A DNA stretch of 64,000 nt from Eledone cirrhosa (lineage: Eukaryota), in contig OZ024746.1 of the NCBI GenBank assembly GCA_964016885.1, forward strand, positions 55,366,001 through 55,430,000, in the 5' to 3' direction. Positions 19,484 to 22,798 of the stretch are shown piece after piece. The stretch's first letter is position 1. Each line of letters begins with the position of its first letter. The position numbers and the translations under genes are program-made. The notes under the pieces were generated by a model. That model had not been told where the DNA came from. It searched no databases and was given only the letters and a program-made list of their open reading frames with translations.

Positions 19484-20670
19484 TTCCGCTTGATGGCCGT
19501 GTGAGATTTCTCGTTGTGAGACTGCTGGAATTTCAAATTTGGCGGTCATTATAGCACGGAGGGGTACCTTCGCTGAACATTAATATCGGTAAGGTTATTT
19601 TTTTGTTTTTTTTTATATCGATATTTGTCGGGCATCCACTGATGATTTATAAGTGCCCACCTACATATATTCCTACGGACTATGTGTAGGCTTCTACATA
19701 ACCTGGACATTATTTTCCCAATTTGTAGAAAACTTATAATGAAACGATCGTTTGGAAAGAGGGATGTATTTTAATTATGTCTCATATAAAATAATACGAC
19801 TGGCTATCCGCAAAATACGTATAGTTAGCACCCCAACCGTATAAGTGGGATTATACTAGGGTATATCCTAATGTTTGTTGAGTGAGACGGAAGCCGGTCG
19901 GAGTTTTGCTTAAAGCTTTCTCTGTTAATGTATTAAATATTATACTCTTGATTTGGCCAGGGATGAATATTTCCAGATACTTTTTAGGTATGACTTTCCG
20001 TATTTATTCTTTGTATGAAATATTGATTGTTCTTCCGTTATCTTATCTCTGTTTTTAGCCTAAGAACATACCTATATGCGTGTATAAATAATACATGCAT
20101 ATATTTATTTTTTTATATCCAATTGAGTTCTTCACGCATGGGTAAAATTATTGAAAGAATTAATTGACCCACGTGCATATTATTTTATTATTTTATGTTT
20201 TGCGATGAACTCCCCTTTCCGCTTGCTGGCAGTGTGAGATTTCTTATTGTGAGAATACTGGAATTTCAAATTTGGCGGTCATTCTAGCACGGATAGGTAT
20301 ACCATCGCTGAACATTAATATCAGTAAGGTTTTTTTTTTTTTTTATATCGATATTTGTCGGGCATCCACTGATGATTTATAAGTACCCACCTACATATAT
20401 TCCTATGGACTATGTGTAGGCTTCTACATTACCTGGACATTACTTTCCCAATTTGTAGAAAACTTATAATGAAACGATCGTTTGGAAAGAGAGATGTATT
20501 TTGATTATGACTCATATAAAATAATACAACTGGCTATCCGCAAAATACGTATAGTTAGCACCCCAAACGTAAAATAGGGATTATACTAAGGTATATCCTA
20601 ATGTTTGTTGAGTGAGACGGAAGCCGGTCGGAGTATTAAATATGGGTTTCTCTGTTAATGTATTAAATAT
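19484..20670 (+). mobile_element. Family J non-coding HHR element, 1.6 tandem units of ~730 bp
   Basis: 19484 repeats at 20217. HHRs at 19635-19756 and 20365-20486. Confidence 0.8.
19635..19756 (+). ncRNA. Hammerhead ribozyme with ~100-nt expanded stem II (family J)
   Basis: TCCA CTGATGA TTTATAAGT...ACTTATAAT GAAA CGATCG TT TGGA. Homologues at 20365 (+), 21453 (-), 22453 (-) and 40593 (-). Confidence 0.75.
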
Positions 20671-20781
20671 ATATATATATACATATATATATATATATAT
20701 ATATATATATATATATATATATATATATATATATATATATATATATATATATATATATATATATATATATATATATATATA

Positions 20782-20929
20782 TTTCGTTTCTGAATTTGTT
20801 TAGCAAGATCCTTTATATGAAATCGTGTGTTGAAACCGATATTGTTATACTTTGGGAGGGTCATGTTGCCAATAAGAAACACACGCACGTGTGTTTCTTA
20901 TTGGCAACATGACCCACCCAAAGTATAAC
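20782..20929. mobile_element. Family A mini-insertion (inverted terminal arms only)
   Basis: Long arm starts tttcgtttctgaa and short arm ends aagtataac, as at 38695-38931. Confidence 0.8.
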
Positions 20930-21270
20930 TATATATATATATATATATATATATATATATATATATATATATATATATATATATATATATATATATATAA
21001 GTATATATATAATATATATATATATAAGTATATATATATATATATATATATATATATATATATATATATATATATGTATATATATATATAAATATAAATA
21101 TATAATATATATATATATAAGTATTTATATATATAAATATATATATACTATATATATATATATATATATATATATATATATATATATATATATATACATA
21201 TATATATAGATATATATTTATATATAAGTGTATATATATATATAATATATATATATAAGTATATAATTAT

Positions 21271-22798
21271 TACAATAACAGAGATAGTTTAAAGCTAAAC
21301 TCTGACTGGTAACCATCTCACTCAACAAACATTAAGTTATATTGAAATATAAACCCAATTTAAGTGTTTGGGCTGCTAACAAAATGTATAATGTGGAAAA
21401 ACCGGTTGTATTATTTTATGAGATATAATTAAAGTTAAAGTATATCTCTCTTTCCAAACAATTGTTTCATTATAAGTTTTCTACAAGTTTGGGAGAATGT
21501 TTCCAGTTTATGTAGAAGCCTAATATATATTCATGTAAGAATATATTTAGGTGGGCACTTATAAATCGTCAGTGGAAGCCCATTAAACATTGAAATAAGA
21601 AAACAATTTCTTACAGCTGTCAAAAATCATGTCCGTAAAGTAGCTCTCTCTCACCTCGAATGACCGCCAAATTTGAAATTCCAGCAGTTTTTGACTTAGG
21701 AAGTATCATAGCGACACGAAGCGGGAAGGGGAGACAACCCACGAAATGAGGAAAAAAATAATATACAATGCTGGTTAATTAGTTTTTTTGAAAAACATTA
21801 TCAATCCGACGTGTTTAAGAACTCAATTGAAAATAAAAAAATAAATATATGCTTGTATAAATTACACACGCATATAGATATTTTTTAGGCTAAATCAGAA
21901 GTTGTACCCGAATAAGAACCGCTTCTCATAACCGCAGTAAATGCGGAAAGTTATGCTATAAAGGGCAAATGGGAATATAATTCTCCGGCCGAAATATTAA
22001 GAGTAAAATATAAAACACACGCGGGTTAATTAGTTATTACAAAACCAATATTAGTTCCTCGTGTAAAGAACTCATTTAATAAAAGAAAATAAATACACAT
22101 ATGCTTGTAATTATATACGTAGGCATATATATATTTTTTTTCCTAGGCTAAAAAACAGAGAAGTTACAACAACAAAAAAAAGCCACAATATTTCACAACA
22201 GTAATAAAAACGGAAAGTCAAATTCATAAGGTACCTGGAAATAAACACCTCTGGCCAATCAAGAGTAAATATTTAATACAATAACAGAGATAGTTTAAAG
22301 CTAAACTCTGACTGGTAACCATCTCACTCAACAAACATTAGGTTATATTGAAATATAAACCCAATTTACGTGTTTGGGGTGCTAACAAAATGTATAATGT
22401 TGAAAAACCAGTTGTATTATTTTATGAGATATAATTAAAGTATATCTCTCTTTCCAAACAATTGTTTCATTATAAATTTTATACAAGTTTGGGAGAATGT
22501 TTCCAGTTTATGGAGCAGCCTAATATATATTCATGTAAGAATATATTTGGTGGGCACTTATAAATCGTCAGTGGAAGCCCATTAAACATTGAAATAAGAA
22601 AACAATTTCTTACCGCTGTCAAAAATCATGTCCGTAAAGTAGTTCTCTCTCACCTCGAATGACGGCCAAATTTGAAATTCCATCAGTTTTTGACTGAGGA
22701 AGTATCATAGCGACACGAAGCGGGAAGGGGAAACAACCCACGAAATGAGGAAAAACATAATATACACGCGGGTTAATTAGTTTTTTTGAAAACATTAT
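21271..22798 (-). mobile_element. Family J subfamily, 1.5 tandem units of ~1006 bp
   Basis: 21271 repeats at 22277. Homologous to the reverse complement of 19484-20670. HHRs at 21453-21576 and 22453-22575. Confidence 0.8.

Follow-up and report, generated by a model that had tools for sequence, protein, structure and literature searches.

Background

Retrozymes have been described as passengers derived from Penelope-like elements (PLEs) (Li 2026, 10.64898/2026.07.22.740005), and it is against the animal retrozymes without long terminal repeats (non-LTR retrozymes) that we set family J, a repeat in a 64,000-nucleotide stretch of the Eledone cirrhosa genome (GCA_964016885.1, contig OZ024746.1, positions 55,366,001 to 55,430,000 of the forward strand; hereafter the window, numbered from its first letter). 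Like animal non-LTR retrozymes, J consists of non-coding head-to-tail units with one type I hammerhead ribozyme per unit and low GC content (PMC7229834; 10.64898/2026.07.22.740005), has a highly paired predicted circular fold, occurs as monomers and partial tandems, and is found together with PLEs; by these testable features it appears to group with them. We conclude, with fair confidence, that this non-coding repeat with a type I hammerhead motif is likely a non-autonomous retrozyme, for which a PLE would supply the reverse transcriptase and endonuclease; in its hammerhead, which probably cuts as a dimer, a predicted branched 96-nt domain replaces loop II.

The J monomers of 730 and 1000 nt differ from the characterised invertebrate retrozyme circles (~170-400 nt). 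However, they lie within or just above the 51-972 bp range of published animal retrozyme consensus sequences, whose mean is 650 bp in ray-finned fish (Li 2026, 10.64898/2026.07.22.740005), and the view of an initial annotation of this DNA that the unit is unusually large is not supported as it stands. Retrozyme RNA circles have been found in mussel, and a hammerhead of the axolotl has a U.U mismatch of the kind discussed below (Cervera & de la Pena 2020, PMC7229834). What separates J from animal retrozymes is its stem II domain of 95-97 nt with two hairpins, together with a candidate Watson-Crick contact that replaces the loop 1-loop 2 motif; we regard the branched stem II as the novel part of J, and unit size as no strong novelty.

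With the minimal type I hammerheads of PLE pseudo-LTRs (PMC4209133), J shares a helix II of 7-8 bp, a helix I of 4-5 bp and a palindromic helix III suited to dimers, whereas its stem II region of 95-97 nt, the U.U in place of G10.1-C11.1 in two subfamilies, and the lack of an adjoining open reading frame (ORF) are unlike them. In pseudoknotted hammerheads (about 40% of representatives; Perreault 2011, PMC3088659) the flank of stem I forms Watson-Crick pairs with the region of stem II, for which J has a candidate counterpart, and U10.1-U11.1 is seen naturally; in J, by contrast, the partner strand lies in a predicted three-way junction on a stem II of 8-9 bp, lacks covariation and can alternatively enter a nested fold that is just as stable. 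The green anole Poseidon element PAc resembles J in that its insertions have a fixed end located downstream of the hammerhead, its targets are AT-rich and its cleavage site is read through. However, PAc is coding and starts 85-92 nt after the cut (computed from the published positions 111-118 and 26 nt; PMC11167929), whereas the non-coding J has its end about 190 nt past the cut, following a predicted multi-stem domain that is larger. The discontinuous CLEC2 hammerhead also carries a large insertion inside a natural genomic hammerhead, but it is of type III, with 150-1500 nt in helix I, and lies in a mammalian 3' untranslated region (UTR) (PMC6155905), whereas the insertion in J is structured, placed in stem II and part of a mobile repeat. 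We found no natural genomic hammerhead with such a stem II domain in the open full-text literature (including Perreault 2011, Eckert 2023, de la Pena 2017, Stitz 2021, Weinberg 2019 and Craig 2021), a coverage outside which most subscription papers fall.

A hammerhead motif with a predicted branched stem II domain

The window contains five type I hammerhead motifs in three subfamilies, as the initial annotation had stated. Hammerhead A1 (19630..19756, plus strand) is composed of a GGGC flank (19630-33), stem I (19635-38/19753-56), the core CUGAUGA (19639-45), the stem II domain (19646-19740), GAAA (19741-44) and the palindrome CGAUCG, with predicted GUU cleavage after 19752; its tandem partner A2 (20360..20486, plus; core at 20369, predicted cleavage after 20482) carries a G-to-A change that breaks one GGGC/GCCC pair. 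On the minus strand, hammerhead B2 (21452..21581) has CUGACGA at 21572, the palindrome CAAUUG, a 97-nt stem II domain and predicted GUU cleavage after 21457, and B1 (22453..22580; core at 22571, predicted cleavage after 22457) differs from it in having P2b broken at three pairs and P2a at one (these hairpins are described below). The third subfamily, C1 (40593-40720, minus; core at 40711, predicted cleavage after 40597), has G10.1-C11.1 and the cleavage triplet GUA. The spacer between CUGAYGA and GAAA is 95 nt in A1 and A2, 96 nt in B1 and C1, and 97 nt in B2. Cores, stems I-III and the palindromic loop III are intact in all five copies, and every catalytic position is kept in the three lineages, N7 being the only position of the first box that varies. 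The switch of the stem III palindrome from CGATCG (A and C) to CAATTG (B) is present as originally described; the accompanying switch of the stem II arms is present too, but it includes a U.U mismatch at positions 10.1-11.1 in A and B.

A strict descriptor demanding at least 4 bp in stem I, at least 8 bp in stem II and a palindromic loop III matched the window five times and none of 500 locally shuffled, microsatellite-stripped windows; in a chance control with dinucleotide shuffles there were 0 matches in 200. The five motifs are homologous and therefore count as one origin, and the complete hammerhead, in the right order, is found on one strand only. Rfam gave no hammerhead family at E values up to 10 in 19470-20665, most likely because of the 95-nt insert, and no hammerhead among 150 of its 217 matches for the whole window. 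A covariance model of the hammerhead (R1), applied to the window, returned only the five training copies as strong matches. Two boxes resembling those of a hammerhead (31662-31781, minus), with 101 nt between them and a loop III that is nearly palindromic, were set aside as chance or a decayed copy, their spacer folding no better than shuffled sequence (z -0.3). CUGAUGA also resembles the box C consensus of small nucleolar RNAs (snoRNAs); a box C/D snoRNA was rejected, given that B has CUGACGA and that the GAAA/NUH context is complete.

The stem II domain is predicted to form a three-way junction, in which stem II (8-9 bp) is topped by the hairpins P2a and P2b; both insert hairpins named in the initial annotation, TTCTACA/TGTAGAA among them, are present. 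In A1 (19646..19740, plus) the U.U mismatch is followed by 8 bp of stem II, the strand GCCC (19655-58), P2a (19660-19690) and P2b (19692-19730), and the domain folds at -28.0 kcal/mol (z -5.6). Over the five copies the insert has z values of -5.8, -5.5, -2.6, -6.1 and -2.4; its antisense strand also folds (z -1.1 to -4.7), the sense value being the lower in five of five copies. Resemblance of P2b to a selenocysteine insertion sequence (SECIS) was judged by eye only and dismissed, as there is no tandem GA/GA. In the alignment of the five hammerheads, 7 of 52 pairs are changed on both sides, compared to a shuffle mean of 2.9, and none of 500 shuffles reaches 7. Two of these double changes lie in stem II, four (of 13 pairs) in P2a, one in the palindrome and none in the ten pairs of P2b; covariation is seen only in P2a, in the uppermost part of stem II and in the palindrome of stem III, and does not extend to P2b. 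Resting as they do on five sequences in three lineages, with shuffle controls that ignore relatedness, the covariation results for the hammerhead, and those for the 3' domain below, are suggestive only.

Two features went unmentioned in the initial annotation: a second structured domain of about 190 nt, described in the next section, and a pairing between GGGC, directly 5' of stem I, and GCCC in the stem II junction. Across A1, B2 and C1 no column varies in GGGC (4 of 4 invariant) or in GCCCA (5 of 5), compared to 4 of 12 invariant columns in the 5' flank, and the duplex is worth about -9 kcal/mol in four of the five copies. [quoted passage not shown] The same strands can instead form a nested hairpin that breaks stems I and II and lies near the energy minimum (-33.4, -29.7 and -27.6 kcal/mol versus minima of -34.4, -31.5 and -27.6), so that the pairing may alternatively serve as an off-state hairpin. 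P2a and P2b would most likely be a scaffold or a protein-binding surface. In A and B, the core can also pair with the stem III strand as an inactive rod (19640-19652 with the 19746-19752 region), and the N7 change (U to C) goes with the palindrome change, preserving this pairing; the rod may be chance or a conserved off-state.

Insertions with a fixed 3' end

Family J occurs in the window as three independent insertions. Insertion A (19484..20670, plus) holds 1.63 head-to-tail monomers of a 730-nt non-coding unit with TA-rich simple repeat on both sides; insertion B (21263..22798, minus), which lies between (TA)n tracts, holds 1.54 monomers, its unit being 1000 nt long; insertion C (40406..40846, minus) is a partial unit of 0.44 kb, with hammerhead C1 and the 3' domain, also between (TA)n tracts. 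All three share a common 3' end, 188-194 nt past the predicted cut and running into (AT)n, their 5' ends differ, and each continues through the predicted cleavage site. The stretch from the predicted cut to the fixed end is the second structured domain, closed by the helix UAAUACA/UGUAUUA, which sits three to four bases before that end. In A1 this 3' domain spans 19753..19940 (plus), its last bases being the fixed insertion end point, which is here read through into the spacer; in A2 (20483..20670, plus) it stops at the end point and (AT)n follows. Five of its 51 pairs are changed on both sides, and none of 500 shuffles reaches its covariation score. A fixed 3' end downstream of a hammerhead, variable 5' truncation, partial tandems and microsatellite targets (three of three insertions) are traits of PLE-type insertion, and the fixed 3' end together with variable 5' ends fits reverse transcription.

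The unit lengths given above are distances from cleavage site to cleavage site. The earlier figure of ~730 bp stands; that of ~1006 bp was taken from other landmarks and is replaced by 1000 nt, the excess arising because B2 carries a 6-nt insertion. The B monomer is longer than that of A because an AT-rich, ORF-free spacer module of ~270 nt (19941..20216, plus, in A) is duplicated in B (two diverged copies in 21750..22270, minus, each ~270 nt and about 74-80% identical), and this duplication is old and itself propagated. Tandem copies are 92.9% identical in A (418 of 450 columns) and 96.2% in B (505 of 525); between subfamilies, identity is 76-86% in the ribozyme, 78-85% in the downstream domain and 66-69% upstream. 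Insertions A and B are separate and face each other over a (TA)n tract, each with 1.5-1.6 monomers and no long arrays; this tract also contains the end of an unrelated PLE family (20783-20888 versus 43011-43116, 97% match).

The units have no coding capacity, as claimed: when monomers are tripled, no frame from stop to stop is longer than 65 aa (unit A taken 1 nt short, unit B 5 nt long), no reverse transcriptase or GIY-YIG ORF lies between the J hammerheads, and six PLE peptides from the window gave no tblastn match inside J units. Their GC content is 31-33%, and 64% of each unit is predicted to be paired in a circular fold (z -4.6 and -5.6, 15 shuffles). Self-comparisons of the window showed no inverted repeat joining unit ends. 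A tRNA-derived element of the short interspersed type (SINE-like, SM-alpha type) or an RNA polymerase III promoter was also considered and rejected, the sense strand having no A box and no B box being present; relaxed ARAGORN reported one unconvincing 'tRNA-Stop', in B only. The original description, of a non-coding unit of PLE type that resembles a retrozyme and has a structured domain in stem II, is supported.

Probable selection on the transposing lineage

We compared differences that keep pairing with those that break it over 94 modelled pairs. Fixed differences between A and B keep pairing in 12 of 16 cases and C-specific differences in 11 of 16, compared to only 4 of 16 for differences between tandem copies of one insertion (p = 0.012, the Fisher value for A/B, and 0.005, both being biased upward). 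One-sided changes of the G.U type are frequent in the alignments of the hammerhead and of the 3' domain, and tandem copies within insertions differ by 4-7%. This pattern fits selection on the transposing J lineage, followed by decay after insertion, with no host role for these copies; selection is assigned to the lineage rather than to the copies in the window because the latter look decayed. The earlier proposal that the ribozyme is under selection accordingly keeps its signs, in the 7 of 52 double changes and the 12/16 versus 4/16 contrast, and loses its application to the window copies. Nothing points to a host function for J.

Copies in public reads and other collections

Four of ten sequencing runs were compared with unit A1, reads being matched at an 80% cut-off. 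Run X8 (organism A) contained 2839 matching reads, of which 311 have (AT)n loose ends behind 19940 and 119 have loose ends that match the second spacer copy, and 1597 contigs of X1 (organism A) match one J unit. Head-to-tail joints from 20216 to 19484/19486 are seen in X1 contigs and X8 reads; they go back one unit (about 704-733 nt) and have several different junction letters. The spacer is covered by reads to a much lower depth than the hammerhead and the 3' domain are. Among 40 of the 231 variant rows listed, seven lie inside the ribozyme, all in insert hairpins or loops and mostly matching subfamily B. In organism A, J is therefore a multi-copy family with a common end point and head-to-tail occurrence. 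In organism B, 13 X4 contigs match, one of them over a 230-nt stretch with a single difference; however, its Hi-C reads gave only 4 partial matches in 1938 million letters, and for this reason its presence there is doubtful and we do not claim a second species.

Part of the J sequence occurs in five contig sets from two studies (shares 0.10-0.33), none recorded as RNA. The J family pattern had no match in metagenome and viral contigs. A generic long-spacer pattern had 3 viral and 78 metagenome matches, of which none (0 of 81) combines a stem II of at least 4 bp with a palindromic loop III, and no match of the covariance model had an E value below 0.4.

Mechanism and alternative explanations

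If J is a PLE-copied retrozyme, the following sequence of events would account for its structure. Tandem J copies would be transcribed, and two neighbouring hammerheads would swap the strands of their palindromic stem III and cut, releasing monomers that are possibly ligated to circles, whereas a single copy would fold into an inactive form; in the fold models for A1, B2 and C1, the dimer is more stable than two active monomers by 8-12 kcal/mol. A PLE protein would then bind the structured 3' domain, nick (TA)n and start reverse transcription internally, just past the domain, with priming possibly by pairing with its AUAU. Copying would continue past the cleavage site, cover at most about 1.6 units and end at variable points. 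Internal initiation downstream of a hammerhead has been demonstrated for a PLE (Frangieh 2024, PMC11167929), and we count the coding PLE fragments in the same window in favour of J being a PLE passenger.

Several observations weigh against this account. The active monomer is predicted to lie 5.7-6.7 kcal/mol above inactive folds (nearest-neighbour model, pseudoknot term excluded), and in short constructs, with the pseudoknot term again excluded, the free tandem is favoured over the active dimer by 6.7-12.4 kcal/mol; a stem II of 8-9 bp beside a stem I of 4-5 bp may in our judgement be unsuited to a pseudoknot, and pseudoknotted hammerheads are sensitive to stem length (Perreault 2011, PMC3088659). 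P2b and GGGC/GCCC show no double change at all, 26 of 500 shuffles reach the double-changed pair count of the 3' domain, and the covariation and Fisher figures are inflated because the structures were derived from the same five sequences. Only one of nine tested Xenopus retrozyme dimers cleaved (Li 2026, 10.64898/2026.07.22.740005). The green anole PLE can insert in vitro with hammerhead cleavage being dispensable, and it primed at a non-homologous site, contrary to the microhomology step (Frangieh 2024, PMC11167929). Within the window, seven further stretches that are repeats or flank PLEs show no clear likeness to J, nor do the PLE ends.

An unlikely alternative is that the hammerhead and 3' domain are the pseudo-LTR or UTR of a coding PLE elsewhere, in which the structures are selected, and that the units in the window are truncated or deleted by-products with hardly any independent existence. 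The excess of read depth over the hammerhead and 3' domain is what 5'-truncated PLE ends would give (diverged spacers also fall below the 80% cut-off), C1 taken alone resembles such an end, and long UTRs do exist here, the stop codon of a coding PLE in the window being separated by about 1.5 kb from a motif that resembles a hammerhead. However, the unit-length non-coding joints recur in two runs with several different junction letters, B has its old, propagated internal duplication, and no recognisable coding sequence was seen among the 18 of 266 loose ends listed, each at most 30 letters; six J motifs also had no real match in the consensus file of Naiad, Chlamys and Hydra elements (Craig 2021), whose line breaks might mask one. 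Naiad was also weighed as a partner: one cephalopod Naiad is listed with a half core and a (TA)n preference, but the J motifs were not found in that file, and cephalopod Naiads are described as long inactive (Craig 2021). We give still less credence to the possibility that J is a PLE passenger whose hammerhead barely cuts, the domain and core being kept for folding or protein recognition and uncut multimeric transcripts being copied. U10.1.U11.1 and GUU in four of five copies would suit it, as would inactive folds as the predicted minimum in all five, the reading of every insertion past the cleavage site, the in vitro result for the anole PLE (Frangieh 2024, PMC11167929) and the eight of nine Xenopus dimers left uncut (Li 2026, 10.64898/2026.07.22.740005). 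Conversely, the conservation of the catalytic positions in three lineages, with variation of the first box at N7 only, and the preservation of the palindrome through a double change argue for cutting, C1 has the canonical G-C and GUA, and U.U at 10.1-11.1 is tolerated and natural (Perreault 2011, PMC3088659; axolotl HHR_Amex2, Cervera & de la Pena 2020, PMC7229834). Finally, a DNA-level satellite, or a repeat like a miniature inverted-repeat transposable element, with hairpins as incidental AT-rich symmetry, is largely refuted and very improbable: the AT-richness and many fold-backs of the window and the folding of the antisense insert strand would be compatible with it, but the complete, ordered hammerhead is confined to one strand, the sense z is below the antisense z in five of five copies, one-sided changes of the G.U type are common, a 3' end that is fixed while the 5' ends vary is in keeping with reverse transcription, and no inverted repeat links the ends of a unit.

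A broader proposal, which we put forward tentatively and consider rather unlikely, is that the branched stem II is an add-on that makes a genomic hammerhead conditional. GGGC/GCCC would flip between an off-state hairpin that traps the core CU and an on-state pseudoknot, under the control of dimerisation or of a PLE protein binding P2a/P2b, and long-stem-II hammerheads would be an overlooked class, invisible to current descriptors. If true, this would explain some PLEs listed without a hammerhead or with only a 'half core'. The descriptors used in surveys of animal hammerheads set an upper limit of about 25 nt, or lower, on the stem II region, and the published ones could not find J because they allow a stem II of 3-7 bp with a loop 2 of 3-10 nt (the PLE descriptor of Cervera & de la Pena 2014, PMC4209133) or a spacer of 7-17 nt (Craig 2021). 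Since there is a multi-copy family with a 96-nt stem II that is predicted to be branched, hammerhead counts and statements that a PLE clade has no hammerhead may be incomplete; eight Naiads with separated half cores (Craig 2021) are a lead for a wider hidden class. For the question of what hammerheads do in PLEs and their passengers, J is a compact test system, offering a separable insert, a candidate switch and a candidate domain for binding reverse transcriptase with a sharply defined start site.

Neighbouring repeats in the window

The window is AT-rich (22-48% GC per 2 kb) with many (TA)n tracts. Its PLE fragments include Pfam matches to reverse transcriptase at 57436 and GIY-YIG at 58377, four of the six peptides having no Pfam match. 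Frameshifted PLE ORFs with matches to both domains lie at 56560-59228 (plus) and 62895-64000 (minus) and are about 69% identical to each other. At 34225-37255 (plus) there is a C-terminal PLE ORF part of 499 aa with YRDD, a Cys-rich linker and a GIY-YIG-like region (motifs by eye) and no Pfam match, which we take to be Neptune-like from its motifs; downstream of it come about 1.5 kb without coding sequence and then, near 37170, a motif resembling a hammerhead whose first box is mutated. A degenerate PLE family that ends in GIY-YIG (42076-43116, 138-2104, 20783-20934 and 38696-38930) has a minimal hammerhead (42868, 1978 and 386); its copies end about 214 nt past the cut, and its end, scattered in (TA)n tracts, makes the fold-back between A and B.

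Other hammerhead-bearing repeats are present as well. A 310-bp tandem repeat (14618-16060; 3.4 copies, 100% identical, plus an inverted copy) has a small type I hammerhead in each copy (cores 14787, 15097 and 15407, minus, and 15860, plus) with U.U at 10.1-11.1 and a CGCG loop III, and appears to be a young, ordinary retrozyme. In a ~423-bp repeat family, split by TA-rich tracts (24432-26981), small hammerheads lie at 25425 and 26713. At 49560-49670 (plus), a single hammerhead of type I, with an unbranched 51-nt stem II (z -4.7), the 8-nt palindrome CTAATTAG and a GUU site, represents a second long-stem-II family, and two more hammerhead families (23209-24151, 27618, 33392 and 39111-39878) have stem II regions of 31 and 36 nt, often form inverted pairs adjoining (TA)n and end about 40 nt past the predicted cut. 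U.U or U17 is found in other hammerhead families of the window and is therefore not special to J. A dispersed SINE-like repeat of ~180 bp occurs in at least eight places (8249-8374, 10990-11204, 11482-11663, 12312-12973, 39208-39326, 43354-43567, 53345-53555 and 55635-55760).

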